From an uncultured Parvularculaceae bacterium (GTDB lineage: Bacteria; Pseudomonadota; Alphaproteobacteria; Caulobacterales; Parvularculaceae): 64,000 nucleotides of DNA. Position numbers and translations under genes: made by a program. Below the pieces are notes generated by a model that did no database searches, was not told the origin of the DNA, and saw only the letters and a list, made by a program, of their open reading frames with translations. Below, one piece after another: positions 18,701-56,813 of the stretch (positions within the stretch are counted from its first letter, which is position 1; every line of letters starts with the position of its first letter). Location of the stretch: the NCBI GenBank assembly GCA_947259375.1, contig CAMYLZ010000018.1, positions 55,441 to 119,440 on the forward strand, in the 5' to 3' direction.

Positions 18701-18784
18701 TCAGGCCGGGCCGGCGCCGACAGCGCTTGTTGTGCGTCTGCATTTATGTGATTTCTTTGCGCGGGAACGGGGAGAGCAAGGCAA

Positions 18785-30657: not shown

Positions 30658-31784
30658 TCATGCAGATTCAATCCGACCCAAAAAATCGCATTCGGGAAGC
30701 GGCGGCGGAAATTGGGTTCGATGCGGTCGGCTTTGCTGACGCAAACTTGCCTGATGCGATCCGCGACCGTTTTACGCGCTTTCTGGAGCTCGCCCGCCAC
30801 GGAACCATGGGCTGGCTCGAAAATCGCGCCGAGCAGCGCGTCCATCCCAACGGCCTTTGGCCGGATGCGCGAAGCGTCATCATGCTGGGCATGAATTACG
30901 GACCCGATACGGACCCGATGCGGGCGCTTGAAGCGAAATCAAACGGCGTGATTTCCGTCTATGCGCGCAATCGCGATTATCATGATGTCGTCAAGAAGCG
31001 GCTGAAACGTCTCGCACGGCAAGTCGTCGAAGAACACGGCTGCGAGGTCAAGGTATTCGTCGATACCGCGCCGGTTATGGAAAAACCGATCGCGGCGCGC
31101 GCAGGCCTCGGCTGGCAGGGCAAGCATACCAATCTGGTTTCGCGCCGGCACGGCTCCTGGCTATTTCTTGGAGCGATTTTTACAACACTTTCCCTCACCC
31201 CCGATGAAGCGGAGCGCGACCATTGTGGTTCCTGCCGAAACTGTCTTGAGGTTTGCCCGACAAGCGCTTTCCCGGCGCCCTATCAGCTCGATGCGCGCCG
31301 GTGCATCTCCTATCTGACGATTGAGCATCCCGGCCCGGTTCCACAAGAGTTTCGCAAGGCCATGGGCAATCGAATTTACGGATGCGACGATTGTCTTGCG
31401 GTTTGTCCTTGGAACAAGTTTGCGGCCGAAGCCCGCGAAGCGGCGTTTCACGCGCGCGATGAATTGCGCACGCCGACGCTTGAAGATCTCGCAGCGCTTG
31501 ACGACGCCGCGTTCCGCAAGCTTTTTTCCGGCTCCCCCGTAAAGCGCACCGGTCGCAATCGATTTGTGCGAAATGTATTAATCGCCATTGGCAACTCCGG
31601 CGATGCAGCACTTGTTCCTCGTGCGGAGGCTTTGCTTGAAGACGAAAGCCCTATTGTGCGCGGCGCCGCCATTTGGGCGCTGTCCCGGCTTTCGCCAGAC
31701 CGCGCAGCGCGGGCCCGAAACAGCCTGGCTTCCTGCGAAACTGACAAGGGCGTTATCGCCGAATGGTCGGCGGCAGGCGATTAA
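30654..31784 (+). CDS. queG: Epoxyqueuosine reductase
   Basis: [60 protein letters not shown]. Confidence 0.96.
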
Positions 31785-34700
31785 GCCTCCACTGTCACGG
31801 TCACGGTTGTCTTGTCGAAATTGCCGTGATCGTCTTCGACCCAGTAAGCAAACGTATCCACGCCGGTAAAACCCGGATCCGCGATATAGCGCACGGTGCC
31901 GTCGTCATTGACCGAAACGATCCCGTGATTGGCAGGGTCGAGACCGTCAATACGCAATTCATCGCCATCCGGATCATAATCATTTGCCAGGACATCAATA
32001 TCCACTTGCTCGCCGCTGCCGACGTTCGCAAAATCATCACGGCCCACTGGCGCGAGGCTGTTCAAGTCCAGAACTCCATGATATTCCGGCTCGACATCAA
32101 GATCGGAAAAATTCCGCTCCCACTCGACGAATACGCCGACTTTCTGCACCTCCCCGGTGGCGCGATCGGCGTAATACTGATCGATGATCGTGACCTGTCG
32201 CCCATCCGGCAAGGTCCAATAGCCTTCTTCTTCCAGCGCATTGCGGATCGTGAAATAGTCGTGGCGGTTCGGATCCCATGTCGGGGAAACGATCGCCGCG
32301 CCGACAGAGTCGGTTTTCGTTCCTGTCAGATCCAGGAAATTACCGGCGCCAGGCAATGGCGTCACCGGAATATTGTCAATGTCGGAATCAAATAGCAGGC
32401 GGCCTGTTACAAGCTGATCCGCGGTAAGGAACAGATCGCCGGCGCCAGCGCTGAGATTGCCGAAATCCGTATCCGCGCCGTCGACATTGACGTCGATAAA
32501 GACATATCCCCAATCACCATCAAACGGATGGTTGAGATTGGTCTCCTGCTTGGATGCATAAACGCCAGTCGGGAAGCCCGAAATAGCGGCGCCGTTGATC
32601 GTATTGTCGATGGAGTTCGGGCCGAACTCAATGCCGCGCCAGGGCGCACGCGCGCCGCTCGACTGGTCCGTCGCAATGAGGTCAATATCGCGCAACGTAT
32701 AATGCGCCGTATATTGCAGATGAATGCCGGTGCGCACTTCCCAGCCGGTGAAATCTTCAATGACGGAACGAACATCATGAGCTTGTTCGGACCCTCCCTT
32801 GATCACCTCAAGGCCGATACCCACCGCAATAGCTTCATTACCGTAAAACTGGGTAATTGCTGGATAATTGACGATTGCCTCATCCACATAGCGTAACGAC
32901 TCGGAAAAATCTGCGGTCGCCGGGTCGACAGGAATCACGCCCCCGCCGCGGGACATATAAACAAATCCGTGTCCGCCGGGTACGCCGGCGGCGACATTGT
33001 CCACAGCATCGACAAGGCGGCCCTGAAACCAGAACCCCGCACCGGTGCGCCCAAGGTCGAATGCGGAAACGTCCTCATGCCACTTGGCGCCGCCGCCATT
33101 ACCGATCGACTTGATCGCAATATTATGGGTCCAACGACCCGTCTCATTTCCTGTTTCCGCAACAAACGCCGCGCCATAAACATCGTAAGCAGCATTATCG
33201 GCGAGCACCGCATTCGAGTCATGGTGCACATATCCCCAACCGGGCGATCCCCACACTGCGTTGCCGACAAGATAGGCCGGATCATCGATATCGGAGACGC
33301 CGGCGCGATGGATATGAAGAGAGTAACGGCCCTTCACATTGGAATCGCTCTGGATGTTCTCAATGTCGCCAGCGTCGAATGCCCGCTCTGATTTGTCCGT
33401 CCGGCCAAGCTCGGTGAACTCCGCGTAACGCACATCGATGTCATCTGAATGCATGAACATCACATGCCCACGCTGGTGAACGGGAACCGCATCTCCATTC
33501 TCCGTCTCGAACACCACATTGCGCGAATAATTCGCCACATAGGCCTTCAAGTCAGCGCGCGGCGCCTCGTGGTCGAATTGCAACGGCCGATCGAAATGAA
33601 TGACATTGCCTTCGATACGCGTGATGATCAGCTCCTCATCTTCTGTTTGATCATCGCGCGGCACGGTCGGCGCCACCTCTTCCGAATGCGTCAAATTCGT
33701 GCCGGTCAGGACAAGCCTGTCGCCGACTTGCCAGCCTTCAGGCGGATTTTCGAGGGTCAATGTCGTATCGCCCGCCATCGGGTCAAGCGCGACTTTCAAA
33801 AAGGAATCCTTCTTGGCGCCGTGAATTTCCGTTGCGCCGTGGCTAATGACGCCGCGCGAAAGCAGCATTGGATCCCATGCAACATCGATCGGCCCGTTAT
33901 CCGCGATCTGGATTACCGCCTGCACATTGGCGGCGACCGGGTTCTCCGCCGTGCCGATCGTCAAACGCCCGCTTGGCGCGACCAGCAAGGTATCGACTTC
34001 CATGAAAGTATCGACGTCGGTTGCAAAATCGAGCGCCCCATCAACGCGCACGGTGAACAAAGAGACCGGGCTTTCGCCGTCATAGGCGACCTCAACGCCA
34101 TGGGAGATAACCACTTTCGCGCCTTCGCCAGGCACCTCTCCGTTGGCCCATGTCGCTGGGTCAAACCATGAACCGCTATTGACAGCGACATGCGTCGCTT
34201 CTTCGACGGGGGCGAGATTAAGCGCCGCAATATGCTCTGACGCTTTTGCTGGGTCATCGGGGTGCGGAGCGCCATCATTGTGGCCGCCATGACCGCCCGT
34301 TCCATCCGGCTGATCTTCCGAACCGCCATTATGCCCGTCCGCGCCGCTATCGCCTCCGCCATCCGCGGCGACGTCAATTTCAACAACGGCGTCGCTGAGA
34401 TTGCCGTCGCTGTCGCGGACTTCGTAACGAAATGTTGCGACGCCCTCAAAACCTTCCTCCGGCGCGAAATGAATGACGCCGTCATGCAGCATCACCGTGC
34501 CGTTAACGGCGTCGAACACTCGGACCAATTCAAGGGTCGTATCCGGCGCATGCGTATCATTGGCAAGCAGGTCTTCCGCCGCAATCTGAATGCCGGCGCC
34601 GGATTGGGTTGAAAAGTTCCCGTCATCTTCCGCCATAAGCGTCGATGGCGGCGGCGTCCCCGGCCCGTCAGATTCTCCGCCGGCGGCGCCGCCAGACGCC

Positions 34701-34990
34701 CCGCCATCAGAGGCGCCGCCTGAGCCTGAGCCGGCCCCGTCATCCGGTCCGCCAGGCGGGTCAATGCCGTCATTGGCTGTCGGGCCGCCCTTGCTGCTGA
34801 GCGTGAAGCAACCTTCCACCGCCAGAAGCGGCGCAATCATGCTGGCTTGGGAAAGGCGTTTCTTGACTTTTGGGCGGCGCGCGCGGCGGCCTTGTGCCGG
34901 GGTTGATAACAACCCCGCCTCGGACGCCTCCAGAATGTCGCGAAGATCGAAAGATGAATAACGCTTAGCCGCATCAAAATCAGAACTCAT
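31781..34990 (-). CDS. Large extracellular protein: Ig/cadherin-like domain + G8 domain + parallel beta-helix + Ig-like domain
   Basis: Two LLAND/VLAND...TF.Y.V.D Ig-like repeats; G8 start [24 protein letters not shown]; [40 protein letters not shown]. Confidence 0.82.
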
Positions 34991-35187
34991 AACATTCCCG
35001 TACGCTACGCCTTACAACCTGTCCCCACTCAGGGGAGCCAAGGCACTCTAGGCAATTACGAGAAATGCAAAATTGAACGTCTTGTTAGAATTGTCGCTAG
35101 ATTGGGGAAACGACGCGATTTTTCACAAACCTTACGCGCTATTAATGGCCCCCGATGGCGCTATTGTCGGCGCCGCTCCCTGCCGGG

Positions 35188-37356
35188 TTAACGAAGCGTT
35201 GCCGCGTCTTGACCGGATTCGGTTTCGGTTGATGCGGCGCGCCCCATGCCAAACAGATTGGCCTGCGCAATGCCGCGTTCGACGAAACGCGCTCGATCAG
35301 CCTCCGGCGCCCAGCCCAGAACCTGTTTGGCGGCGGCATTGTCGAAGGGCGAGCGCTGCGCACGCGAACTCCAGTCGCGAAAACTTGGGCGCGTGAGCCC
35401 GGGCTTCCTCGCAATCAGGCGTTTCAGCCAGTATTTCACCATATCGACAACGAAATAGGTCCAGACCGGCGTCGGGCCTGTGCGCATGCGAACGCCGCAG
35501 GCGCGGCTGACTTCATCAAAATAATCGCGCGCGGACAGCATCGGCTCGCCAATGAGGTTGAATGACCGGCCGAGCGCCTCCGGCTTGTCCATCGCCAGCA
35601 CCAGGCCGGCGGCGACATCATCGACCAGCACGAACGGCATGAAATTGCGCCCATCGCCCCAAAGTTTGCAGGCGGTCGCGCCGCGCCACATGGCAATCCC
35701 CCAATGCTGCAAGGGACCGCCCTTTCCGATAACGATACCCGGGCGCGCAATCACCAAAGACAAGTCACGCGCTCTTTGCAATGCCAGTAATTCCTCCTCA
35801 CACGCCGCTTTGGAGCGCGCATAAAGATTGCGGCGTTCGAGGTCTTCATCAAACGGGGTTTGCTCCGTAATCGTCCTATCAGCGTTCGATGCATCATATG
35901 AATCGATCGTGCCGGTATAAACCAGCCGTTTCACTCCCGCCGCCAGGCACGCCTCGCCAATTCGGCGCGTTACCGCGACGTCGTTCTCGAGATATCCCTG
36001 CCAGCTTGACTCACTCGCGCGCGCCAGGTGGAAAACGCCGTCAGCACCCGCCATCGCCGCCCTCAAGTCTTCATCAGACTTCAAATCGCCGCTTATGACC
36101 GATACCCGGCCATCCTGACGGGCGAGGCCGCCGCCTGCGCCGCGCGAGAAGACACGCACATGATATCCTTGGTCAAACAAGGCGCGACACAAAGCTCTTC
36201 CAATAAAACCTGTGCCGCCAATCACCAGCATCGTCTTGCCATTGGCTTCCGGCGGGGGCGTTTGGGCATCGCGCTTCGGCGCGAATTTCGAACCCGCATC
36301 CCCAACCGCCCGTTCGATCATTGCCGTAGCGCTTGCGGCAAGCCCCGCAGACAACCGCCCGTCAATGTCAGCGCCGTCATGCATGGAACGATAAAAACCA
36401 TCTACCGCGCGCTGTATCGATAGCCCGTAAGGCGCGTGCGCATTCAGCGATGTCAGTTGGCGAAACGCATTACCGGCGCCGGCGCTGAACGCCTGCCGCG
36501 CCGTCGACAATTGGCGAAGCAGCGGGCCGACGACAATATCGCCCATGGGCGCCGTCTCGCGCCGGTATGTATCCTCTGCAAAATCGTAATGCGCCACCGC
36601 GCCAAGCCCGCGTATGCGCAAGGACCGATGATCGCACCCCTCAACCAGCGACAGATTTAGATTCACCGACGTATGGCCCGCGCGGCCCGTAATGCGCCAA
36701 CCTTGATAGTGGGTGACCCCGCCGGGAATTTCGATGGGATTGCGCAAATCGACGCTAATGTCATCCAACGGTCCGAGAATATCCGCGACAAAAGCAAACA
36801 AATGCGGCCCAAGTTCGAATAGGAGGTTTTGCGGCTGGCGCAGCATCCACAGGCTGAAGGGGCCGGAACGCAGCGGCGCCAGCGGAAACTGCCAATTCGC
36901 TTCGAATGTATCGATCGGGCCGATAATCCCGCTCGCGATATCAGCCTTGAGCCGATCATAGGAAGGCAGCATCAGAAAATTATGATTGACGCCGAGATGC
37001 GCGCCCTTCGCGTTGCTGAGCGCATCAAGCCGCTGACAATCCTCAACATTCAAGGCAAACGGTTTTTCAACAAAAGCCGCGATACCGGCCTTCAGGATTT
37101 TTTCCGCTGCTTCCGCATGAATATGCGGCGGTGTTAAAACATGAACGCTGTCTGCGACGCCCGCATCGAGCATTTCATCGAGCGACGTAAACACGCGCGC
37201 CGCGCCGCAACGTCCGGCAAGCGCGTCGGCTGCATTGCGGGAAAGGTCGCAAACAGCGCTGATTTCAACGCCGGGCGTGCGCTTTAACGCGCCAGCATGC
37301 CAATCGGCGATGTACCCGGCGCCCAGAAGCGCGACTCTTGTTGCTGCTTTGCTCAT
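35188..37356 (-). CDS. Gfo/Idh/MocA oxidoreductase fused to NAD-dependent epimerase/dehydratase (SDR)
   Basis: N-half GAGYIA, VLTPPHIH, VEKPFA, GVNHNF, ELGPHL; C-half GGTGFIG, VFHLA, YARSK, RPGIVIG. Confidence 0.88.
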   Translation of the reverse strand: MSKAATRVALLGAGYIADWHAGALKRTPGVEISAVCDLSRNAADALAGRCGAARVFTSLDEMLDAGVADSVHVLTPPHIHAEAAEKILKAGIAAFVEKPFALNVEDCQRLDALSNAKGAHLGVNHNFLMLPSYDRLKADIASGIIGPIDTFEANWQFPLAPLRSGPFSLWMLRQPQNLLFELGPHLFAFVADILGPLDDISVDLRNPIEIPGGVTHYQGWRITGRAGHTSVNLNLSLVEGCDHRSLRIRGLGAVAHYDFAEDTYRRETAPMGDIVVGPLLRQLSTARQAFSAGAGNAFRQLTSLNAHAPYGLSIQRAVDGFYRSMHDGADIDGRLSAGLAASATAMIERAVGDAGSKFAPKRDAQTPPPEANGKTMLVIGGTGFIGRALCRALFDQGYHVRVFSRGAGGGLARQDGRVSVISGDLKSDEDLRAAMAGADGVFHLARASESSWQGYLENDVAVTRRIGEACLAAGVKRLVYTGTIDSYDASNADRTITEQTPFDEDLERRNLYARSKAACEEELLALQRARDLSLVIARPGIVIGKGGPLQHWGIAMWRGATACKLWGDGRNFMPFVLVDDVAAGLVLAMDKPEALGRSFNLIGEPMLSARDYFDEVSRACGVRMRTGPTPVWTYFVVDMVKYWLKRLIARKPGLTRPSFRDWSSRAQRSPFDNAAAKQVLGWAPEADRARFVERGIAQANLFGMGRAASTETESGQDAATLR

Positions 37357-38336
37357 TTGTACTCGACGATCTCAACCTTTGCGCCCGTCAGCATTCGCCA
37401 GCGGTGTTTCAGGATGCCAATCAGGTTTGGAAATTTCGCTAACGTCAAAAACGCTGCGCCCAGGCTTGCATGACGCGGCGCTTCTCCCCGGCGGATCAGC
37501 CCTTGCCGGGTGCGCAGAAACGATGCCGGATACAGGCCCAGCAATAAAAAGCTCAAGCCATTCGATAATGGCGCGCCGACAAGCGCCGCCGCTGGCAGGG
37601 CGAGCCCCCAGCCCCAAGCGCGCCGGCGCTCGGCGCGGAAATAATCACGATGCAAATCGCCGAGCTGCGCAAAAGCGCAGCCGGCCCGAACCATCCGCCG
37701 CCACCATTGCCCGAATTCATGCATATCCGCATCGTGAAAACACATGTCGCGATCGATCCGCACGATGCGCGCGCCATTGGCGCGAATGCGAATGCAAAAA
37801 TCATCATCCTCCGCGGCGATAATATTGTCGCGAAACCCTTCAACGCCGCGAAAGGCGTATGCCCGGACCATAAAAATTCCGCCGCATGCATTTATATCGC
37901 CAGCCGGGCCGCGCCATTCAATTTCACACAAGCGGTTATAAATGCTCGCATCGGGGAGCCGCTCGCGGCAACGGCCGGTGACAACGCCAATTGTTTCGTC
38001 ATGGCTGAGCGTCGCAGCGGCGGTTTCAATGAAACCATCTATAAGCGCACAATCGCCGTCGATAAACATAACATAATCGGTATCGGGCCAGCGCGCTTCC
38101 AGCGCACGGAACCCGGCATTGCGCGCCCGCGCCGCTGTAAAACCGTTTGCTTCTTCAAGCGAGACGACAAGCGCGCCGTGTTCTTCCGCATAAGGAACGC
38201 TTTCATCGACAGAACCGGAATCCACATATACGATCCGCTCGCCAGCGCCTTTCAACGACGCCAGGCATTGTTTGAAGCGTTCGCCCTCGTTCCGCCCTAT
38301 GGCGACAAAGCCAATTGTTCGTTTCAGGTCATTCAC
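37353..38336 (-). CDS. Glycosyltransferase family 2
   Basis: GTG start overlapping the upstream TGA; IGRNEGERF..CL, VDSGSVD, RARNAG, FIDGD (DxD), EDDDFCIR. Confidence 0.9.
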   Translation of the reverse strand: MNDLKRTIGFVAIGRNEGERFKQCLASLKGAGERIVYVDSGSVDESVPYAEEHGALVVSLEEANGFTAARARNAGFRALEARWPDTDYVMFIDGDCALIDGFIETAAATLSHDETIGVVTGRCRERLPDASIYNRLCEIEWRGPAGDINACGGIFMVRAYAFRGVEGFRDNIIAAEDDDFCIRIRANGARIVRIDRDMCFHDADMHEFGQWWRRMVRAGCAFAQLGDLHRDYFRAERRRAWGWGLALPAAALVGAPLSNGLSFLLLGLYPASFLRTRQGLIRRGEAPRHASLGAAFLTLAKFPNLIGILKHRWRMLTGAKVEIVEYK

Positions 38337-39529
38337 GGGCGCGGCTCCGCATCGTCGCCGCGCGTCGGCGTCCACTGCTTGACGCTGTCGCGCCCCGCCT
38401 TGCCGAATACTTTCGCTTTCGCTGCGATGAACTGAATGCCTCCGCCAATCGCCGACGGCGGCAGGGCGTCGCGCCCATACGCAACCCAGCCGATGAATAA
38501 AGCAAGGCCGGTCAAAACAAGCGCCGAAATTCCAAGCGAGAACGCGCCGAAAAACCCTGTCGCCAGCCAGGTCGCGCAACCGAGCCCCGCCACGGCTCCA
38601 AGCATGGCGATAAACAAAGTCAGCGGCGGGATCATAAGGTCCGCCGCCGCGCCGATTAACCGCCAATTCCGTTGCTCAATCCCCTGCCTGATCAAGGCCA
38701 TGAACGACCGTGCGGCAAAGCGAACCGACCCGAGCGACCAACGCGCCGCCTGGCGGGTCATCGCCGCTTCTCCGGTCGGAAACAGGCTCGTCACGGCCGC
38801 ATCTTGCGCCAGCATCGGCGCCGCGCCGGCGCGCACCAGTTGCAAGGACAGCGCGAGGTCTTCGACAATCTCGCCGGATCCGACCTTCGCATGCTCAACC
38901 GTTCGCCACGGCGCAGCAAAACCGGACCCGGTAAAACGGGTCACGTCGAATATTCGCTGCAATCCGCTCATGCGCACTTTATTGATGAACAGCCAGGCGA
39001 ACTCCGCCGCCTGCCACCGCGGCCCGGCGCCGGCAGGCGCCTTCATCAGGTAAAGCGCTTGCACAGGACGGCCTTCCTGCGCGGCAAGGCCAGCGACCTT
39101 TTGCAAGGCGCCGTCATCAAACAGACAATCAGCATCTGCGAAGACGATGATCGCCGGCGGCGCCGCGCGCAACGCATCGATGGCGAATTGCAGCGCATAT
39201 CCCTTGCCGCGTGCTTCCGGCGCATTGCGCACCAGCACTTCAGCGCCATGCCGCAGGGCGGTTTCCGCAGTTTCATCAGTGCAATTATCCGCAACCACAA
39301 TCAAACGGTCGCGATCACGCAATTGAGCGCGAATATTATCGAGCGTCGGCGCAATGGTTCCCGCCTCGTTATGCGCCGGCACGACGATGGCAATCGGCCC
39401 GGCGCCGTCCGCCGCTGGTCGGAGCGTCACAGGCGCAAGCGCGGCGATCGCCTCGGCAAACAGGAGCCCTGCCAATGCGAGGCCCGCCATCGCAAGCCCT
39501 GTCGAGGTGATAATCAAAAATACGGACAT
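38333..39529 (-). CDS. Glycosyltransferase family 2 (membrane-anchored)
   Basis: VPAHNE, ADNCTD, GKGYAL, FADADC, EDLAL, RQAARW (QxxRW). Confidence 0.9.
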   Translation of the reverse strand: MSVFLIITSTGLAMAGLALAGLLFAEAIAALAPVTLRPAADGAGPIAIVVPAHNEAGTIAPTLDNIRAQLRDRDRLIVVADNCTDETAETALRHGAEVLVRNAPEARGKGYALQFAIDALRAAPPAIIVFADADCLFDDGALQKVAGLAAQEGRPVQALYLMKAPAGAGPRWQAAEFAWLFINKVRMSGLQRIFDVTRFTGSGFAAPWRTVEHAKVGSGEIVEDLALSLQLVRAGAAPMLAQDAAVTSLFPTGEAAMTRQAARWSLGSVRFAARSFMALIRQGIEQRNWRLIGAAADLMIPPLTLFIAMLGAVAGLGCATWLATGFFGAFSLGISALVLTGLALFIGWVAYGRDALPPSAIGGGIQFIAAKAKVFGKAGRDSVKQWTPTRGDDAEPRP

Positions 39530-39542
39530 GGGTGCTTGCCGT

Positions 39543-41672: not shown

Positions 41673-41742
41673 GATGTTTTCGCTTCCAATCGGCCCTTGC
41701 GCCGTCGCATCCCTTACTGACTATCACGACAAACGCCGCCGA

Positions 41743-44157
41743 CTACATCCGGTCTAGCAGCGCCCGCACGTCATTTTCAAATATGAAGTCCGGGCCGCCA
41801 AGCCTCAGCGCCTCTTCAAGGCTTTCGCGGGCCGCTTCCTCGTCGCCGCTGGCGAATTGCGCGGCGCCAAGGTGATATCGCATTTCGGCGCTCTCGCCGA
41901 CGCCGGCCACCGCCTCGGCAAGATACTCAAGCGCCCGGTCATACTCACCGGAGCGATAATACGCCCAGCCGACCGTGTCGCGATAATAAGGGTTGTCGAG
42001 CGTTTCCAGGGTCTTCGCCACCTCAAGAGCGCGCGCGATGCTTGCGGCGTCCAAAAGCAGGTCGGAGGACAGGCTGACGAAATTGTTGGCGATAATACGA
42101 TCATTGGGACGCTCTTCGATCAGGTCCGAATAAATCGCCAATGCGCCTTGGCGGTCGCCGCGCTGGATCAGGACATCCGCCTTGAAAACCCGCATGGCGC
42201 TGTTTTCCGGCGCGGCCTGCAGACCGCGTTCAATCAACGCGGCGGCGTCTTCGAACCGCTCTTCGTCAAGATAATGCCGATAAACAAGCTCATAAGCTTC
42301 CGGACGCTCTGGCGCGACATCAATCGCCCGCTCCAGCGTCGCCAGATAGTCGTCATCATTATCGCGAGAATCATGAATGCGCGCCAACAGAAGATAGGCG
42401 GGATATTTGTCCGCATCGGAATTAATGATCCGGGTCAACAACGCTTCCGCGTCGTCCAGACGATCCGAGCGCATGTAAGCCGTCACCACTGCGGTCAGCG
42501 GCTGGCTTTCAAACGGAATTTTCTCCTCATTCGCTGCAAATGCATCAATAACGCCCTGATAGTCGCCAAGACCGATATAAGCGGCGGATTTGATCCTCGC
42601 CGCCAGAGCATCCTGATTGGCGACGTCTTCCAACAAGGCAGCGACTTCTTCCGCGCCGCGCCAGTCCTGCTTGGCAAGGCGAATGGAGGCAAGAAGTTTA
42701 AGGTTCTCCGTATCCCCCGGATGCGCCGCCAGCGAGTCCACCAGCACTTCCTCAGCCCGTTCTACATTGCGGCGGCGCAGGAGAAATCTTGAAAAACGCT
42801 GTGCGACGCCTGCCGCCCGATTACTCGTCTCGAAGGCTTTCGCCAATTCGGCCTGCGCAAAATTGAGATTGTCCTGTTTTTCGAACGCGGCCGCCATCAG
42901 CACCATGGCGTCATATTCATCCGGACTATTGTCCAGCGCCGAGCGAAGATTGACGACCGCCTGGTCATATTGAGCATCATCGATCTGCAATGCCGCCCGC
43001 TTGATTAATGCGGCTGTATTGCGCTCATCCGCCGCCAGAATTTCATCAATCAGGGCCCGCGCCTGATCTCGCTCGCCGTCTTTCAGCAACAAGACGGCGA
43101 TCTTGTTCTTGGCTTGAAATGCAATGTCGAGATTTTCGGATGCCGCAAGGCCGTCAAGAAGCGCGCGAGCGCTTTCGGCATCGTCTTCCTGCACATAAAA
43201 ATCCGCCAAGGCGAATTGCACTTTGGCATCGTCCGGATTGGCTTGCGCAAACGCCCGCAGCGTCGCTTCCGCCGCTTGAGCGCCTTCGATGCGATTGACG
43301 ATCCGCACGACATTGAGTTTTGCGTCGAGATTTTCCGGTTCAAGACCGGCGATCGCTTCCAATTGCTCGCGCGCCTGAGCGAGTTCGTCCCTTCGAATGA
43401 GCTCTTGTGTAAAAACCCGCCGATAGGCCGGTTCTTCAGGGAAGTTCTCGATAAGTTGCGCGTAAGCGTTCAATATCTCGGTCTCTCGGCCAAGCCGCTG
43501 GAGCGCGTGAATGCGCAATAACTGCAAAACCGCGATCTGCGGATTGATCTCAAGCGCCTTGTCGATTTCCGCCAGCGCCCCCTCGAAATCACCGTCTTGC
43601 GATTTTTGCGTCGCGAGGACGGTCACGGCCTCCGCGTTCGCCGGGTCTTCGGCCACGACGCCGCGTGCAATCTCAACAGCGCCCGCAGCATCGCCAATCT
43701 TCAAAAGCACTGCCGCTTTAAGCGAGCGCGCATCGACATTTTCCGCATCCAGCGCCAGCGCTTTTTCGGCTTTTTCGAGCGCCGATGTTTCATCGCTGCT
43801 CACGAGAAAGAGCTTGCCGAGTTTGATCTGCGCGTCGATTTGCGCCGGGTCGAGCCGCGCAACGCTTTGCAAAATCCCGAACATCGCCTTGAAGTCATTG
43901 CGCTGTTCAGCAATTTCCGCGAGCCCGACCAGCGACGGGATATGTTCCTCGTCGATCTTCAGGGCGTTTTGAAACTGGATATAGGCTTTCGGCAAATCAC
44001 CTGCTTCTAGATATTCCGCGCCATCCGTACTGTAACGCTCGACTTTCTGTTCAGGCGAGGCGCACGCGGCGGCCGCCAGCGCCATCGCCGATACAGCCGC
44101 AAATCTGAGATAGCCCGCTCGCTTGATCGAACCTTTCCGTTTGCCGATTGTCGTCAT
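41743..44157 (-). CDS. TPR-repeat lipoprotein, PrsT-like
   Basis: Basic N-region and lipobox LAAAAC, then TPR repeats along the whole length; ends RDTVGWAYY...YHLGAA. Confidence 0.85.
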   Translation of the reverse strand: MTTIGKRKGSIKRAGYLRFAAVSAMALAAAACASPEQKVERYSTDGAEYLEAGDLPKAYIQFQNALKIDEEHIPSLVGLAEIAEQRNDFKAMFGILQSVARLDPAQIDAQIKLGKLFLVSSDETSALEKAEKALALDAENVDARSLKAAVLLKIGDAAGAVEIARGVVAEDPANAEAVTVLATQKSQDGDFEGALAEIDKALEINPQIAVLQLLRIHALQRLGRETEILNAYAQLIENFPEEPAYRRVFTQELIRRDELAQAREQLEAIAGLEPENLDAKLNVVRIVNRIEGAQAAEATLRAFAQANPDDAKVQFALADFYVQEDDAESARALLDGLAASENLDIAFQAKNKIAVLLLKDGERDQARALIDEILAADERNTAALIKRAALQIDDAQYDQAVVNLRSALDNSPDEYDAMVLMAAAFEKQDNLNFAQAELAKAFETSNRAAGVAQRFSRFLLRRRNVERAEEVLVDSLAAHPGDTENLKLLASIRLAKQDWRGAEEVAALLEDVANQDALAARIKSAAYIGLGDYQGVIDAFAANEEKIPFESQPLTAVVTAYMRSDRLDDAEALLTRIINSDADKYPAYLLLARIHDSRDNDDDYLATLERAIDVAPERPEAYELVYRHYLDEERFEDAAALIERGLQAAPENSAMRVFKADVLIQRGDRQGALAIYSDLIEERPNDRIIANNFVSLSSDLLLDAASIARALEVAKTLETLDNPYYRDTVGWAYYRSGEYDRALEYLAEAVAGVGESAEMRYHLGAAQFASGDEEAARESLEEALRLGGPDFIFENDVRALLDRM

Positions 44158-44200
44158 CTAATTCTCCACCCTCATTGCGCCGGATGCCCGTGTGCCATCA

Positions 44201-44215
44201 TTAATGCGCCCTTAC
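44201..44215. promoter_or_regulatory. CtrA-like box TTAA-N7-TTAC
   Basis: ttaa-tgcgccc-ttac, 44 nt upstream of the TPR gene start. Confidence 0.5.
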
Positions 44216-44225
44216 AATCCTTGCC

Positions 44226-45452
44226 TTAGCTGGCAACCCGCTCTTTCGCGTCGCTGGCTTGCTGCTCGGCGCTCGCCGCCGCTCCGCAAGCATAATTCAT
44301 GCTGTTCAACCGTAACACGCGCCGCTGCGCCGGGCTGACCCCCTCCAAGGTGATCCGCTCGGCTCCAATGTGCTTTTCCAGCATCAAAAGCATTCCGAGA
44401 AACGCCCGATCAAACCGCGCGCCCGGCGCGAATACCAGCCGCACCGGGCGGTTCGCCGATGCCGCCTGCCGGAACGCGTCGCTCACCGGGGCGAGGCCCC
44501 TGCGCAAAAGGCGTCCGGAAAGTTCGATGCGCGATTCCGCAACGCCGAGCATGATGGCGGCGCCGGCCGGCGCCCCAGCGCCGCGACCGGCGCGTCCGAG
44601 TTGCGGCGCAACGCGCGTCAAAAACAAACCGGCCAGCGCGATCGCGTCCTCAAAATAACGCCGCCATAGTGACGGCTCTTCCTTGATGCGCCAGGCCCAT
44701 TCCAGTCCCAAATGCTGCAAGCGCCGCGGCGCGCGCGCGATGCCGCCCGCCGTAAAGTCAATCACCGCGCCAAGATGCGCCGTCACCGGCGCCATCAGTC
44801 GTTCGCGATTGCGCTCGATCCAAGCCTGCCCCTTTGCCGCGCCCAAGGCGACAATGACGAAATCCGGCGCCGTTGCATTGATATCGTTAATGACATCTTC
44901 TCCGCTCATGCTCTCCACATCGCCATAGCCCGGATTACGCCACCCAACCGCCTGTACGCCGTTTGATTCAGCATTGATCATCTTCGCCGCGGCTTCAGCG
45001 GCGCCGTCGCGCCCGCCGAAAAAGAATATTTTAAGCGGATGGCCGACAAAGGCGGGCCGCCGCCGCAACGCTTCGAACAGGTCGGAGCCGGCGACGCGCG
45101 TCGAAACCGGTATGCCCAGCAATCGCGCCATTAACACCAGCGGCCCGCCATCAATCAGGCTGAGATCGGCATTCAGGATCCGGCGCCGCTCCTGGCGGTC
45201 TCGCGCCGCGCGCACCAGCCAATTTACATTCGGCGTTACAAAAGACAGGCGGGCGCCGGAACGCACCGCAGTATCAATCGCCGCCACCGCCTGATTGATA
45301 TCGGCCATATCGACCGGCAGTCCCAACAAGCACCATACGTCGCGATCAAAATCATCGCGCCGCAAGGACGCGACGGGACCGCGCAACCTTGTCGTTGCGC
45401 CTGAGGCGGCGGACGCCTTGCTATTCGTCATGTCAGGCCGCGGCTCAGCCAT
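44226..45452 (-). CDS. WecB/TagA/CpsF glycosyltransferase with C-terminal STAS-like extension
   Basis: VTPNVN, LSLIDG, RVAGSDL, FFGG, IVALGAAKGQ.WI, GLEWAWR..EEP.LWRRY; ~95-aa tail. Start is 45452 or 45431. Confidence 0.87.
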   Translation of the reverse strand: MAEPRPDMTNSKASAASGATTRLRGPVASLRRDDFDRDVWCLLGLPVDMADINQAVAAIDTAVRSGARLSFVTPNVNWLVRAARDRQERRRILNADLSLIDGGPLVLMARLLGIPVSTRVAGSDLFEALRRRPAFVGHPLKIFFFGGRDGAAEAAAKMINAESNGVQAVGWRNPGYGDVESMSGEDVINDINATAPDFVIVALGAAKGQAWIERNRERLMAPVTAHLGAVIDFTAGGIARAPRRLQHLGLEWAWRIKEEPSLWRRYFEDAIALAGLFLTRVAPQLGRAGRGAGAPAGAAIMLGVAESRIELSGRLLRRGLAPVSDAFRQAASANRPVRLVFAPGARFDRAFLGMLLMLEKHIGAERITLEGVSPAQRRVLRLNSMNYACGAAASAEQQASDAKERVAS

Positions 45453-45540
45453 ATTTGTTTCGACGCCAATTCTCTGGGTTTGTGCATTCGCGGCGTTTCA
45501 GTCTGAGACCGGAAACACCGTTAATGAAACCTTGCTGCGA

Positions 45541-45555
45541 TTACCGCAATTCTAA
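45541..45555. promoter_or_regulatory. Weak CtrA-like box TTAC-N7-CTAA(C)
   Basis: Two mismatches; in the divergent tagA-like/exosortase intergenic region, with further TTAA half sites at 45521 and 45582. Confidence 0.3.
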
Positions 45556-45846
45556 CAGCAAAGCTGAGGCCATTTTTATCCTTAACACTCCCTTGGCCGG
45601 ATTTTATGGAGATTCGAACGCCCAGAGGGCCGGCGCCGCCGCCCCGGCGGCCGGGCGAAACGCGCCATGCACGCGGCCCGCCGTCACGCCTGAGGGAAGT
45701 TTTTTCACCGGTCTTTATTGCGAATACGCTTTGACGGATTGATCTACGGCGCCGTTTTTGCTGTCCTGCTACAAAGAATCCGACCGTAACGTCTTTATTT
45801 GGGGGGAGCGGACAGCGCCAGCATCCGCAAAAAGTGAATCGAATCT

Positions 45847-47472
45847 ATGACCAGCACGCCACCCGAAAAGGGGCCGCATTCGGGCTCATTCACCAAGCTT
45901 CGTCCTGCTTACCTTGTCGGCATGCTGTGCGCGGCGATTCTGTTCGCTTTTTTTGGTGGAATTGAGAATCTTTTCAAACGCTGGGGCGAACAGCAAGAGC
46001 TCAGCCATGGTTACTTCCTGCCCGTGATCACCAGCTGGATGCTCTGGTCGCGGCGCCAGGCGCTCACGCAAAGCGTCAGCCGCCCCGAATGGCTCGGCCT
46101 TGCCGGCGTCGCAATCGCCGCCATCGTGCTGATCTTGTCAGAACTGACCGTCACATCGCTGATGATCTTCCAACAGCTCGCCATGATCGCGCTGTTTTCG
46201 TCGCTGGCGCTGGCGCTTGGCGGTTGGGGTTTGTTCCGGCTGACCCTGCTTCCCGTCGGTTTCCTGCTGTTCATGGTGCCGCCGCCATATTGGGCGATCA
46301 CGGTACTGTCTCAGCAGTTCCAGCTATGGTCGTCGCAAATCGGCGTTGCGATGATCGAGATGTTCGGCATACCTGTGCTGCTGACCGGAAACATCATCGA
46401 CCTTGGCGATTACAAATTACAGGTCGCCGAGGCCTGCAGCGGCTTGCGGTATCTATTCCCATTTCTCAGCCTCGGTTTTCTCGCCGCCTATCTCTTCAAT
46501 GCGCCATTATGGCAGCGCGCGGTCGTTTTTATTTCGACAATTCCGATCACCATTCTCATGAACAGTTTCCGGATCGCCGTTACCGGCATCCTGGTGCAGC
46601 AATTCGGCGCCGAACATGCCGAAGGGTTCATTCATCTGTTCGAAGGCTGGGTGGTCTTCCTGTTCTGCTTGGCGCTTCTTTTCGGCCTCATCGCCGCGCT
46701 GGCGCGTTTTTCCGGGCGCAAGGATGTCAGCGCGCTACTCACCCTGCCGGAAATCAGCCCGATTAAAGCCGCCCACTCCTGGTCGGCGTCAGTATTCAAG
46801 AAATTCGCGCTGGCCTCTATCGCGATCATCGCCGCCGCCGGCGCCTATGTGCATTATGGCATTTCCAATGTCCTGAAAATTCCGGCGCGCGCAGATCTCG
46901 CCGCCCTCACTTACGAATTTCCCGGCTGGCGCACCGACATCGCCGAAGTCGACGCGCAAACCCTGGAAGTGCTCGGTGCGGACGATTACCTGATCACCAA
47001 TATGACCAGCCCTGAGGGCGAGCTGTTCAACCTTTATATCGCCTATATAAACATGCAGCGGCACGGCCATAGCTGGCACTCCCCGCGTCAATGCATTCCC
47101 GGCGGCGGATGGCAGATTACGCGTCACGACGTCGTTCCGATCACGCTCGAGACCGGCAGGACGTTCCATTACAACCGCATCATCATCGAGAATCGCGGCC
47201 AGCGTCAGCTTCTCTATTACTGGTACGATCAACGCGGGCGGAAAATTGCAAATGAATTCGTGATGAAGTTCATGCTGATCCTTGACGCGGTACGGATCCG
47301 ACGGACCGACGGCGCCATGATCCGCATCATGACCCCGATTACCACGAACGAGAGCCTTAATGAGGCCGATCAGCGCTTGCTCGGTTATATGCGCGAATTG
47401 CAGCCAAAGCTTCCAGCCTATATTCCGCCCGCCGACGCGCCGGCGACCCGGGAATTCGACCCTGGGGCGTAA
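45847..47472 (+). CDS. Exosortase with C-terminal EpsI domain (XrtD-like)
   Basis: W..QQELSHG, VAEACSGLRY (Cys), NSFRI (Arg), HAEGFIHLFEGW; EpsI part ADDYL, YIAY, HSPRQCIPGGGW, YYWY.QRGR, RRTDGAMIR. Confidence 0.9.
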   Translation: MTSTPPEKGPHSGSFTKLRPAYLVGMLCAAILFAFFGGIENLFKRWGEQQELSHGYFLPVITSWMLWSRRQALTQSVSRPEWLGLAGVAIAAIVLILSELTVTSLMIFQQLAMIALFSSLALALGGWGLFRLTLLPVGFLLFMVPPPYWAITVLSQQFQLWSSQIGVAMIEMFGIPVLLTGNIIDLGDYKLQVAEACSGLRYLFPFLSLGFLAAYLFNAPLWQRAVVFISTIPITILMNSFRIAVTGILVQQFGAEHAEGFIHLFEGWVVFLFCLALLFGLIAALARFSGRKDVSALLTLPEISPIKAAHSWSASVFKKFALASIAIIAAAGAYVHYGISNVLKIPARADLAALTYEFPGWRTDIAEVDAQTLEVLGADDYLITNMTSPEGELFNLYIAYINMQRHGHSWHSPRQCIPGGGWQITRHDVVPITLETGRTFHYNRIIIENRGQRQLLYYWYDQRGRKIANEFVMKFMLILDAVRIRRTDGAMIRIMTPITTNESLNEADQRLLGYMRELQPKLPAYIPPADAPATREFDPGA

Positions 47473-47478
47473 TTTTTG

Positions 47479-48450
47479 TCAGGCGCGGCCGCCGCCAAGC
47501 CAGCCAAGCCAGATATCTGCATATCGCTTGCGGCTGAGCTGCGGCGCCGGCCTGCCAACGACGCCCCGCATCAAGGCGATCAGCCGACCGGCCAGCCACG
47601 CAATATTCGCCAGGAATGGTCCGGCCGGCCCGTAAACCTTTCGAAAATAGCGCGCACGCGATCGGTAGTAATAGGCCGGGAGCCGCGCGCCCTCGTCCTG
47701 CTTTTCGCTGAGTTTCGTCGAGCCGCCCGCATCGTGGACGAATACGGCGGCCGGCACATAGCGGATTTCAGCGCCGCGCCGGGTCAATCGCCGACAATAA
47801 TCGCAATCCTCATAATAAAGGAAAAACCCCTCATCCATCGGGCCGGCTCTATCTATCGCTGCGCGCCGGATCATCACCGCAGCGAAACTCACCCATGCCG
47901 GATCGGTTGCAACATCGTCGGGAAAAATCGGCGTTTCACCATGCGGCAACAGCCGGGTCACCGGGCCCGTCTGCGCGCCGTCGACAAACTCACTGGCGAG
48001 ACTGTGACGACGAAACCGGGACACTTGCGGGGCGCCATCGCTGGAGACGATCTTCGGCGTAAAAACACCGGCCGCCGGCGCGGCTTCCGCAGCGGCGAGC
48101 AGCGCCTTGAGGGCGCCGGGGCGCACCTCGGCATCGCTGTTCAACAACAACACAAACTCAGAGCGAATGTTTTCAAAACCGATATTGTTGCCAGCCGAAA
48201 AGCCCCCATTGCCGGGCGCGGCGACGACTTTCATACGGGCGCGCGCCGGCGCAATCTCACGCCAGGCGCAAAGCCGCTCAAATGAACCGTCGCCGGATGC
48301 GTTGTCGACGACGACACAAGCCCCCTCGACTTCCTCCAATTGCCGCGCCAGCGAGGCAAGGCATGCCTCCACGAGAGCCGGCGTGCGGTAATTCACAATC
48401 ACCACGCCAAGCCTGAAACGGCGATTTTCGTCATATTCGTCTTTCGCCAT
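47479..48450 (-). CDS. Glycosyltransferase family 2 (rhamnosyltransferase-like)
   Basis: IVNYRT, VVDNASGDGS, GFSAGNN, LLNSD, FFLYYEDCD. Confidence 0.9.
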   Translation of the reverse strand: MAKDEYDENRRFRLGVVIVNYRTPALVEACLASLARQLEEVEGACVVVDNASGDGSFERLCAWREIAPARARMKVVAAPGNGGFSAGNNIGFENIRSEFVLLLNSDAEVRPGALKALLAAAEAAPAAGVFTPKIVSSDGAPQVSRFRRHSLASEFVDGAQTGPVTRLLPHGETPIFPDDVATDPAWVSFAAVMIRRAAIDRAGPMDEGFFLYYEDCDYCRRLTRRGAEIRYVPAAVFVHDAGGSTKLSEKQDEGARLPAYYYRSRARYFRKVYGPAGPFLANIAWLAGRLIALMRGVVGRPAPQLSRKRYADIWLGWLGGGRA

Positions 48451-48482
48451 ACGATTTCACTGTTTCATTCTTGCTGCAGTTG

Positions 48483-48498
48483 CTAAGCTGGTTTTAAC
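48483..48498. promoter_or_regulatory. CtrA-like box CTAA-N7-TTAAC
   Basis: ctaa-gctggtt-ttaac between the divergent GT2 and wzc-like genes. Confidence 0.5.
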
Positions 48499-48681
48499 GC
48501 TTTGATTTAGCACGGCTTGCCCTGATTATAAGAGCCCTGCATGAGCCGCGCCGGCGTTCTGGCGGCGCAATTCTTGCAGCGCCGCTCGCCGATACAGGCA
48601 TGGCGTGTCCGCCGCGGCGCTAATGGCCGCATGAACTGGGATGAGGCTTCCACAGGCCTCGATGAACAGGACTGAACGAGA

Positions 48682-50310
48682 ATGGGCGAAGAATTCACAC
48701 TCGAAGACGCGCTGATCATCCTGCAAAGGCGGTTCTTGTATTTCATCATCCCGGTTCTGGTGATCGCCCCTATCGGCGTGATCACCGTGATGCTGTTGCC
48801 GGCGAAATATACCGCCCAAGGAACCATTCTTGTTGAGTCGCAGCAAATCCCGACTGATTTTGTCCGCTCGACGATTAACGCCTATGCGCATGAACGCATC
48901 CAGACCATTCGCCAGCGCGTCATGACGCGCAATCGCCTGCTTGAGGTTGCAGACGAATATAAGCTTTTCCCGCGCGAACTTGGCCTGTCCGAAACCGAAC
49001 GCGTCAAGAGAATGCGCAGCAATCTGAAAGTCGACCTCATCACCACGCGAACCAATCGCGCCTCCGGCGACGGCACGATTGCCTTTACGGTCGCATATAC
49101 GGATAGCAACCCTGGCAAATCCTATCTCGTCGCCAATAAGTTCATGACGCTGTTCCTTGACGAAGATATTCGCGCACGCACGGCAGGCGCGTCCAACACG
49201 ACAGAATTTTTTGAGCGGGAAACGTCGCGCCTTCGCGCGGCGGTCGCCGACCTTGAAAATCGCGTATCGGAGTACAAGACCGTTAATGCAGGCGCGCTTC
49301 CCGAACAGCTCAGCATGAATCTCGATATGCTAGAACGACTGCAAAGAGAGCAATCTTCAGCCCAGTCCTCGATCACTCAACTTGAAGAAGAGCGGCGCTT
49401 TCTGGAGGACCAGCTCATCAGCGGCAATAAGGGCGATAACGGGCTTTCGATTGAGCTGGCCCGCCTCGAATCCGAATTGGCGCGGCTGCGGGCCACCTAT
49501 CGCGACAGCTATCCGGAAGTAATCGCGAAACAGGACGAAATCGCCGCCATTAAACAGCGCATGGCGCCAAGCGAGGAGATCAAACGGCTGCGCAACCGCC
49601 TGAGTGCGGCGGAAGACACCTTGAGCCGACGGGAACGCGCGGACAGCGACGATCCGGAAGCGATGGCGGCTGCCGAAGCCGACATAGCGGCGGCGCGCGA
49701 AGCATTGAGCTCGCGTATTGCCGAAGAAATGCGCAAAGGATCGGACGATATCGCCGGCGTGCAGCTTGAAGGCCGCATCGCTGTCGTCGAGAACCGCATC
49801 CGCATGCTGAACCGGCAAAGTGAGACCACGCGCGAGCGCATTATCGCTTTGGAACAGCGCATAGCGCGCACCCCGGAAGTCGAACGCGGTCTTTCCGCAC
49901 TGACCCGTGATTACGAAAACATGTTCAGGGAATATCAGGACATCCTCGACAAACAGCAGGACGCCCAGCTTGCGGAAAACCTGGAAGAAAATCAGCAAGC
50001 TGAGAAATTTTCCATTCTGGAGCCCGCGCTTAATCCTGAAGAGCCGTCCAGCCCGGATCGCCTGAAACTGATTTTTGTCGCGCTGGTTGGCGCGATCGGC
50101 CTTGGCGGCGCCGCCGCTCTCGGTGTCGAGCTGGTCATGGCTAGGCTTCGCGGCCGGAGCCACATTGCTAGCATCATTGACGGTCAGCCAATCGCCGTTA
50201 TTCCGTATATTCACGGCGAAAATAACCGCCGCCTGCGTTTGCCATTTTTAAACAACCGGCCGGGCAAGGGCCGTTTTGGCGAACACATGACGGAGCGAGA
50301 CGCAGCTTAA
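48682..50310 (+). CDS. Polysaccharide chain-length determinant (Wzc/GumC transmembrane part)
   Basis: Two TMs flanking a long coiled coil; LPAKYTAQGTILVE, FSILEPA..PEEPSSPDR. Confidence 0.9.
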   Translation: MGEEFTLEDALIILQRRFLYFIIPVLVIAPIGVITVMLLPAKYTAQGTILVESQQIPTDFVRSTINAYAHERIQTIRQRVMTRNRLLEVADEYKLFPRELGLSETERVKRMRSNLKVDLITTRTNRASGDGTIAFTVAYTDSNPGKSYLVANKFMTLFLDEDIRARTAGASNTTEFFERETSRLRAAVADLENRVSEYKTVNAGALPEQLSMNLDMLERLQREQSSAQSSITQLEEERRFLEDQLISGNKGDNGLSIELARLESELARLRATYRDSYPEVIAKQDEIAAIKQRMAPSEEIKRLRNRLSAAEDTLSRRERADSDDPEAMAAAEADIAAAREALSSRIAEEMRKGSDDIAGVQLEGRIAVVENRIRMLNRQSETTRERIIALEQRIARTPEVERGLSALTRDYENMFREYQDILDKQQDAQLAENLEENQQAEKFSILEPALNPEEPSSPDRLKLIFVALVGAIGLGGAAALGVELVMARLRGRSHIASIIDGQPIAVIPYIHGENNRRLRLPFLNNRPGKGRFGEHMTERDAA

Positions 50311-50345
50311 GCAAATAGGTCAGGATTTCGGGGTAGGTCGGCTTT

Positions 50346-51161
50346 ATGGATCGTATACGAAACGCCGTAACGCGAGCGCGGCATGAGAGAGAAAAAACCG
50401 CCGACCCGGCGCGATCGGCGCAAAGTCGCAATGCGGTCGAACCCGGTGGCGTCGAACCCGGTGGCGCGGGATACGACTTTGCGCGCGCTGAGTGCGATTT
50501 TGAAAACTTCGCCAAGCACCGGATCATCGCCAATGAACAAGACCCGGTGCTGAATGCATATCGCGTCTTGCGCACACGAACATTGCAAAAAATGGAGGCG
50601 AACAACTGGCGCACGCTGGCGGTCGTCTCCCCTGGTTCCGGCGCGGGCAAGACTGTCACGGCGATCAATCTCGCCATCGCCATCGGCTCCAAACTCGGCT
50701 CGCGCGCGACACTGATTGATCTCGATTTTTATCGGCCGAGCGTCGCCCGCTATTTGGGACTCAAGGATTTTCCGTCGGTTCTGGATTATTTCGAGGGCAA
50801 GCGCGATCTTCATGACATCGCGCTGCGGCCGCCGCTGCCGGACGTCCTGGTGCTCGCCAATGAACGGGTGACGCGGCGCGGCGCCGAGCTTCTAACCTCG
50901 CCTCGGGCCGACGAGATGATAGACACCGCCGTCAATGATTTCGCCTCCAGGGTGGTCATTTTCGATATGTCGCCCCTGCTCGGATGCGACGACACGATCG
51001 CGTTTCTCCCGAAAATTGACTGCGCGCTTCTCGTCGCGGCAAGCGGCGACACCAGGGTGGACGAGCTTAAAGAAGCGCAGCGGGTGCTCGGCCAGACCAA
51101 TATTCTCGGCACCGTCCTGAACAAGGCGCCGGCCGCTTTCATGCCGAACCAGTATTACTAA
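50346..51161 (+). CDS. CpsD/CapB-type protein tyrosine kinase (Wzc cytoplasmic part)
   Basis: AYRVLRTR, Walker A SPGSGAGKT, A' LIDLDFYRP, Walker B VIFDMSP, C-terminal NQYY. Confidence 0.9.
   Translation: MDRIRNAVTRARHEREKTADPARSAQSRNAVEPGGVEPGGAGYDFARAECDFENFAKHRIIANEQDPVLNAYRVLRTRTLQKMEANNWRTLAVVSPGSGAGKTVTAINLAIAIGSKLGSRATLIDLDFYRPSVARYLGLKDFPSVLDYFEGKRDLHDIALRPPLPDVLVLANERVTRRGAELLTSPRADEMIDTAVNDFASRVVIFDMSPLLGCDDTIAFLPKIDCALLVAASGDTRVDELKEAQRVLGQTNILGTVLNKAPAAFMPNQYY
50436..50465 (+). repeat. Exact 15-bp tandem duplication (VEPGG x2)
   Basis: gtcgaacccggtggc occurs twice, in frame, in the N-terminal linker of the kinase. Confidence 0.9.
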
Positions 51162-56782: not shown

Positions 56783-56813
56783 GCCGCACTAACATCGAGA
56801 ATTGTATAACCTT

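Follow-up and report, generated by a model that had tools for sequence, protein, structure and literature searches.

What does an exosortase do in a glycan locus that appears to hold neither a substrate for it nor the means to carry a polymer out of the cell? The question is raised by a 64,000-nucleotide stretch of DNA from an uncultured Parvularculaceae bacterium (contig CAMYLZ010000018.1 of assembly GCA_947259375.1), which we refer to as the window. A first-pass annotation had described, at window positions 31781-51161, a locus built around an exosortase of the XrtD type, with glycosyltransferases (GTs) and a split Wzc, and without Wzx flippase, Wzy polymerase, Wza exporter or any CTERM-tailed sorting substrate. 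Based on profile scans of the whole genome and comparison with related genomes, we consider it likely that this is an ordinary split XrtD/VPLPA-CTERM module with its missing functions encoded elsewhere in the genome, and that substrates and Wzx, Wzy and Wza appeared to be lacking because only one window was viewed.

Gene identities were taken from Pfam and NCBIfam profile scans, which confirmed every gene on the original list (Table 1), and export genes and tails were sought by whole-genome hidden Markov model scans. The latter bore out the described absences, as the contig that holds the window (C18) gave no Poly_export, Wzy_C or Polysacc_synt_3 match and no VPLPA/PEP-CTERM tail. The exosortase aligns with TIGR04152 over its full length (residues 44-527 on model positions 3-486), carries the TIGR04178 signature (73.6 bits), and is fused at its C-terminus to EpsI (TIGR02914, 122 bits against a cut-off of 42.8; PF11984, E 6e-49). 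Cys, Arg and His are the conserved residues of the exosortase/archaeosortase core, and C197, R242 and H263 are invariant when the protein is aligned to XrtA and to nine XrtD-like proteins. These results support the description of the locus as a glycan locus centered on XrtD.

The sorting substrates are encoded on other contigs. A tail-pattern search of the genome identified six VPLPA-CTERM-like proteins of 200-243 aa, located on six contigs other than C18, and all with an N-terminal signal peptide; as they are alike only in their last ~25 residues, the tail resembles a sorting signal. The TIGR03370 (VPLPA-CTERM) model matches above its cut-off on contigs C32, C7 and C22, with one match just below it on C28, and the cut-off was reached in none of 14 control genomes. 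Tails of this kind number 6-14 per genome in all eight XrtD-positive congeners and are absent from all four XrtD-negative ones. The cargo of the module is therefore encoded elsewhere in the genome, not missing as had been reported from the window, and the tails are confined to congeners with XrtD. In one congener (G016), 328 bp separate a cargo gene from xrtD, and in another (G096) a cargo gene is found ~2.2 kb beyond orf326, although the protein it encodes has no homologue in the genome under study. We considered the open reading frame at 56802-57368, at a site roughly corresponding to that of the G096 cargo gene, as a cargo candidate and rejected it, as it has no CTERM tail; a reading of its sequence, rather than a family scan, makes it look like a LOG-type protein.

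Comparison within the marine genus Hyphococcus (Parvularculaceae) demonstrated that the stretch 31781-51161 is a discrete module of ~19.4 kb and 11 genes, present or absent as a block. Seven of these genes, from G8 to GT26-STAS, make up a minus-strand run, and the other four, from XrtD to the kinase, are divergent from it. We scored co-variation over 13 Hyphococcus genomes, nine XrtD-positive and four XrtD-negative (G011, G006, G051 and G216), using concatenated-protein queries. In G011, queG abuts the resistance-nodulation-division (RND) adaptor gene and exactly the genes from G8 to the tyrosine kinase are gone, i.e., the equivalent of window 31781-51161, whereas in G006, G051 and G216, queG abuts orf326 and the genes from G8 to the RND genes are gone. 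These deletion limits identify the module as a single unit of gain or loss and, together with levels of identity, led us to count the four XrtD-negative genomes as two loss events. The run from wcaJ to orf326 is fully syntenic in four XrtD-positive congeners, with 55-86% protein identity, and this synteny is also seen on 15 further Hyphococcus/Marinicaulis contigs. Among related loci, the ATPase-pseudoGT, TPR, GT26-STAS, XrtD, chain-length determinant and kinase genes form a constant core, and G8, GFO-SDR, GT2a and GT2c are variable; for example, the GFO-SDR fusion is missing from the H. luteus locus, and GT2c from G046, G096 and H. luteus. The GT26-STAS, the three GT2 enzymes, the GFO-SDR fusion and the G8 protein represent the glycan-specific portion of the module, which differs from species to species. 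The locus relatives that can be named are Hyphococcus and Marinicaulis, both Parvularculaceae, and not the Rhodobacterales. XrtD was present in 44 of 301 genomes sampled across the order, all 44 from this one family, and in other Parvularculaceae genera a GT4 gene is the only neighbor of XrtD, and nothing else there is shared with this module, so that synteny outside the genus is unusable.

Candidates for several functions that the module lacks are encoded elsewhere in the genome by genes that vary in step with it. The priming gene wcaJ, one of just two PHPT genes in the genome, is cleanly gone in G006 and G051, reduced in G011 to a remnant of ~270 bp (19%) between cysQ and ugd, and intact in G216. 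Here, a partner gene acting in trans has decayed once the module that it served was lost, and WcaJ is likely to be the priming enzyme for the module. The neighboring ugd is kept in all four XrtD-negative congeners and is thus not module-specific, although it may possibly supply precursor. The earlier suggestion that a ugd-wcaJ pair feeds the system accordingly gains support in the case of wcaJ, which only one of the four XrtD-negative genomes keeps intact, and none in the case of ugd. The genome also encodes three MOP flippases (on C5, C27 and C22), besides a likely MurJ judged by its N-terminal sequence only, and three Wzy_C proteins (on C25, C27 and C20). The C5 flippase and the C20 Wzy are present in all 13 genomes. 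The Wzx/Wzy pair at C27:66085-69113, in contrast, is present in all nine XrtD-positive genomes, either as an orthologue or as a variant pair of 26-29% identity, and in none of the four XrtD-negative ones. The Wzx-like gene on C22 occurs in six of nine and none of four, respectively; both here and in five of these congeners, a cargo gene is located within ~1-3 kb of it.

The only Wza belongs to a second exosortase system, XrtA/PEP-CTERM, which is complete as a whole and is split over contigs C4, C29 and C25, with a textbook locus at C4:3840-17026. The exporter of this locus is the sole Poly_export protein in the genome, as is also the case in five of the eight other XrtD-positive congeners, and a Wza of the XrtA type is kept in every genome scored, with or without XrtD. 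With a co-varying wzx/wzy pair on C27 and a Wza on C4, what had been read as a system devoid of Wzx, Wzy and Wza is probably so only within the window. The TIGR03027 exporter and the TIGR03016 outer-membrane protein have no copy in the window module, their sole genome copies being on C4, and we identified no dedicated outer-membrane exporter for the XrtD module. The helper proteins in the window are diverged paralogues of the C4 copies (23-40% identity) and score below the XrtA equivalog cut-offs (Table 1), the true XrtA-type equivalogs being located on C4. Only one clear PEP-CTERM protein was observed in the genome, a proline-rich peptide of 74 aa at C32:143364-143588 (TIGR02595, 20 bits).

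Together, these genes suggest how the split module could work. WcaJ, encoded 5 kb upstream, would prime a lipid-linked repeat unit, which the GT26 and GT2 enzymes would extend; the candidate C27 Wzx and Wzy would then flip and polymerize the unit, steered by the polysaccharide co-polymerase (PCP) and kinase of the module. The polymer might leave through the only Wza of the genome, putatively shared with the XrtA locus, or be ligated to another carrier; both outer-membrane routes are possible, as is none. At the inner membrane, XrtD would cleave the tails off its cargo and hand the proteins on to the cell surface or matrix. The first-pass annotation had itself named CTERM tails elsewhere in the genome, wzx, wzy and wza outside the window, and conserved synteny as marks of a split XrtD locus, and this is largely what we find.

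Some of our observations weigh against this reading. Just two independent loss events underlie the association of XrtD with the C27 wzx/wzy pair, and since this pair lies within a 40-kb variable island, it may co-vary with XrtD as a result of surface islands being lost in general. G216 keeps wcaJ in the absence of XrtD, the Wza of the XrtA locus is only a putative shared exporter for the XrtD polymer, and a full-text literature search for XrtD and VPLPA-CTERM found no relevant paper and no experimental study of XrtD. In addition, as judged from its predicted structure, GT2b could offer a candidate route that needs neither Wzx nor Wzy. This protein has approximately four to five membrane helices, one at the N-terminus and the others at the C-terminus, its D, DxD, ED and QxxRW motifs are invariant in 13 orthologues, and the best PDB folds for its confident AF2 model (pLDDT 88.8) are PcManGT, hyaluronan synthases (HAS) and BcsA. 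No other GT of the module is as widely conserved, its range extending to a gammaproteobacterial locus. GT2b might on this model be a processive synthase that polymerizes a glycan and threads it over the inner membrane, and by analogy the TPR lipoprotein might be a scaffold of the AlgK/BcsC type and the G8 beta-helix protein a modifier of the AlgG/BcsZ type; we regard the synthase route as unlikely, and these roles for its proposed partners as equally so. The best-matching structure, PcManGT, is that of a minimal, cellulose-synthase-like mannosyltransferase from an archaeon, and this enzyme is not known to be processive; the channel of BcsA needs more membrane helices than the four to five of GT2b. 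The GT26 family acts on lipid-linked acceptors, and the presence of a GT26, a PCP and a tyrosine kinase in the module, along with the decay of wcaJ on module loss, are features of Wzy-dependent systems. Moreover, a related locus (L102) keeps the core without GT2b, the TPR repeats reach residue 788 of 804 with no porin domain after them, and the module encodes no barrel domain and no separate porin.

We give a low probability to a further proposal, in which the Hyphococcus/Marinicaulis XrtD module would be a self-contained device without Wzx, Wzy or Wza: GT2b would make and translocate the glycan in a complex with the ATPase-pseudoGT and the TPR lipoprotein, XrtD would transpeptidate VPLPA-CTERM proteins onto it, the G8/beta-helix enzyme would trim it, and the C27 co-variation would be a coincidence. 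Very improbable, in our view, is the idea of the first-pass annotation that two GT-C-like membrane proteins, unk548 (28164-29810) and a 511-aa protein (window -583 to 952), stand in for Wzy or a ligase and join glycan to proteins. For each, 9-11 membrane helices are predicted, along with a soluble domain at the C-terminus, and unk548 is encoded between wcaJ and the module, but neither protein has a Pfam or NCBIfam match even at E 0.05, unk548 is dissimilar to the WecA-like neighbor of distant XrtD loci, and both genes are kept at syntenic sites in congeners without XrtD, cargo or module, so that nothing ties them to the system. We find it barely credible that the module is a decaying remnant that has lost its export genes and its function. 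Distant XrtD-like loci do hold Wza and Wzx in cis, and this locus holds neither; however, none of the 11 genes is disrupted, and their synteny is maintained, at 55-85% protein identity, over many species of two genera; XrtD and GT2b have invariant catalytic motifs, and cargo genes persist solely where XrtD does.

The split XrtD/VPLPA-CTERM module that we favor is, as a finding on "missing" functions, an ordinary one, as these functions are probably encoded elsewhere. Its interest lies in Hyphococcus as a clean natural test, as the genus includes close species with and without the entire module, whose presence is tracked by cargo genes, wcaJ and one wzx/wzy pair. The questions at stake are the effect of the exosortase on its cargo, and whether there is a physical link between this cargo and the polysaccharide.

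Table 1. Genes of the XrtD module and related features. Locations without a prefix are window positions; other contigs (C) and related loci (L) carry our own numbers.
Feature	Location	Strand	Profile matches	Remarks
G8 + CEMIP beta-helix + Big_9/cadherin protein	31781-34990	-	PF10162 G8 E 3e-16; PF24606 CEMIP beta-helix E 2e-8; Big_9 E 1e-30	Last gene of minus-strand run
GFO_IDH_MocA oxidoreductase + SDR epimerase/dehydratase fusion	35188-37356	-	PF01408 E 5e-23; PF01370 E 5e-38	Nucleotide-sugar modification
GT2a glycosyltransferase	37353-38336	-	PF00535 E 3e-12	DGD motif present
GT2b membrane-embedded GT2	38333-39529	-	PF13641 E 1e-23	
ExeA/PEP-CTERM-type ATPase fused to dead GT2a copy	39543-41672	-	TIGR03015 285 bits, aa 1-263 (XrtA equivalog cut-off 324.5)	
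PrsT-like TPR lipoprotein	41743-44157	-	TIGR02917 212 bits (XrtA equivalog cut-off 312); TPR_19 E 4e-45	Lipoprotein-type N-terminus, ...AMALAAAAC
GT26 (WecG/TagA/CpsF) + C-terminal STAS	44226-45452	-	PF03808 E 5e-44; PF13466 E 3e-10	
XrtD exosortase with fused EpsI	45847-47472	+	TIGR04152 487.4 bits (cut-off 400)	
GT2c glycosyltransferase	47479-48450	-	PF00535 E 2e-15	Variable member
PCP (chain-length determinant)	48682-50310	+	TIGR03007 194 bits (XrtA equivalog cut-off 279)	Transmembrane helices at both ends
BY-type tyrosine autokinase	50346-51161	+	TIGR03018 115 bits (XrtA equivalog cut-off 231); TIGR01007 66 bits	Split Wzc partner; C-terminus ...NQYY
ugd, UDP-glucose 6-dehydrogenase	24129-25433	-	TIGR03026 464 bits	Outside module
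wcaJ, undecaprenyl-phosphate glucose phosphotransferase	25503-26960	-	TIGR03023 470 bits (cut-off 410)	Outside module
XrtA locus genes	C4:3840-17026			EpsB_2 primer, TIGR03027 exporter, chain-length determinant, kinase, TIGR03016 outer-membrane protein, ATPase above cut-off, deacetylase, FemAB, stp1
TIGR03027 exporter (Wza)	C4:7577-8215		229 bits	
TIGR03016 outer-membrane protein	C4:10720-12408			
XrtA-EpsI, amidotransferase, stp2	C29:4935-10505			
XrtA-associated ligase-like protein	C25:403929-405263		TIGR03097	
C27 island genes	C27:60600-101200			GT4/Wzy/Wzx, TolC-ABC-HlyD type I secretion system, GalE, KpsF-like, ABC-2 transporter, polysialyltransferase-like, VPLPA-like cargo gene
C27 island 1862-aa protein	C27:60600-101200			GT8, FkbM methyltransferase, galactosyltransferase and sulfotransferase domains
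540-553-aa neighbor of exosortase in distant loci	L105:7846-9507; L107:11817-13451; L108:11539-13161; L109:12266-13903; L111:11921-13555; L112:12510-14144			

Detailed examination of the individual module proteins showed several further features. The G8/beta-helix protein, a candidate glycan-cutting or glycan-modifying enzyme, has no CTERM tail, and a PDB sequence search with it gave no relative. The reading frame of GT2a is open to 38666, and the shorter form, up to 38336, is preferred on the basis of orthologue coverage of 0.73-0.76. The C-terminal 340 aa of the ATPase (aa 362-702) are 27% identical to GT2a (E 1e-23), with DxD changed to EAG and the membrane helices kept; this ATPase-pseudoGT fusion is kept throughout Hyphococcus and Marinicaulis, whereas distant XrtD-like loci match the ATPase part only. 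Distant loci likewise match only the GT26 part of GT26-STAS, with coverage of ~0.6, so that this fusion looks lineage-specific, and its STAS domain may provide a regulatory link to the tyrosine kinase. The RND pump at 51344-55722 was considered as an exporter and set aside, as G011 retains the pump despite lacking the module, and no outer-membrane factor gene was seen alongside; it is probably a mere neighbor.

We also observed regions of variable gene content outside the module. The C27 wzx/wzy pair lies in a variable surface-glycan island of ~40 kb (C27:60600-101200; L020, L021), which is wholly gone in G011 and mostly gone in G006, and which encodes a putative type I secretion system that might export the tail-less G8/cadherin-repeat protein. 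Adjoining a VPLPA-CTERM cargo gene at C22:31375-37577 (L023:7375-13577) are genes for the Wzx-like flippase, a HAD hydrolase, a cytidylyltransferase-like protein, an APH-type kinase and a weak TagF-like glycerophosphotransferase. Within the window, 9539-12859 and 17234-20287 (a TonB-dependent receptor and tandem 490-aa paralogues) have no orthologous match in the syntenic G006 and G011 regions, the receptor having only a 27% partial match in G006, which indicates that this part of the window also varies within the genus.

Distant XrtD-like loci (31-39% identity) contain the same ATPase/TPR/WecG/PCP/kinase core, and some also encode Wza in cis (L107 and L108, from Nitrospirales and Lacibacterium) or Wzx in cis (L106, L109 and L111, from Paracoccaceae and two Nitrospira-type genomes). 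This points to a general design that is Wzy- and Wza-dependent, of which the Hyphococcus locus is a dispersed version. Directly beside the exosortase, distant loci encode a protein of 540-553 aa with ~14 membrane helices (Table 1), which in the three tested (L105, L107 and L108) is a member of the WecA/MraY family (PF00953) with a long extra membrane domain; the Hyphococcus locus has no WecA/MraY-family neighbor beside XrtD.

Compared with known systems, the module shares an ExeA-like ATPase, a PrsT TPR lipoprotein, a chain-length determinant, a tyrosine kinase and an exosortase-EpsI with the XrtA/PEP-CTERM-EpsH system (Haft et al. 2006, PMC1569441, which makes no mention of the VPLPA variant), but has no TIGR03027, TIGR03016, deacetylase, FemAB or amidotransferase, and its sorting signal is of the VPLPA type, not PEP. 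With Wzx/Wzy capsule and exopolysaccharide systems of the group 1 or colanic-acid type it has in common a WcaJ-type primer, a GT26 that uses a lipid-linked acceptor, and a PCP/BY-kinase pair, although here the genes are drawn from at least three regions of the genome, there is no dedicated Wza, and an exosortase and cargo are added. The synthase systems (BcsA, hyaluronan synthase and Alg8/AlgK/AlgG) resemble it in the fold and the D, DxD, ED and QxxRW motifs of GT2b, and in the co-encoded TPR lipoprotein and beta-helix protein, but differ in several respects: the present module lacks both a PilZ or co-polymerase partner and a TPR-porin, its GT2b contains fewer helices, and it shows hallmarks of the Wzy type. 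The XrtD/VPLPA-CTERM system was reportedly defined computationally by Haft and colleagues in J Bacteriol in 2012. The module agrees with it in having an exosortase and fused EpsI above the curated cut-off, small secreted VPLPA-CTERM proteins encoded in the same genome and mostly far from the enzyme, and an exosortase set amid polysaccharide genes with a TPR lipoprotein; it differs in having no Wza, Wzx or WecA/MraY-family gene of the kind found in distant loci, and in that its ATPase bears a dead GT2 domain and its GT26 a STAS domain.

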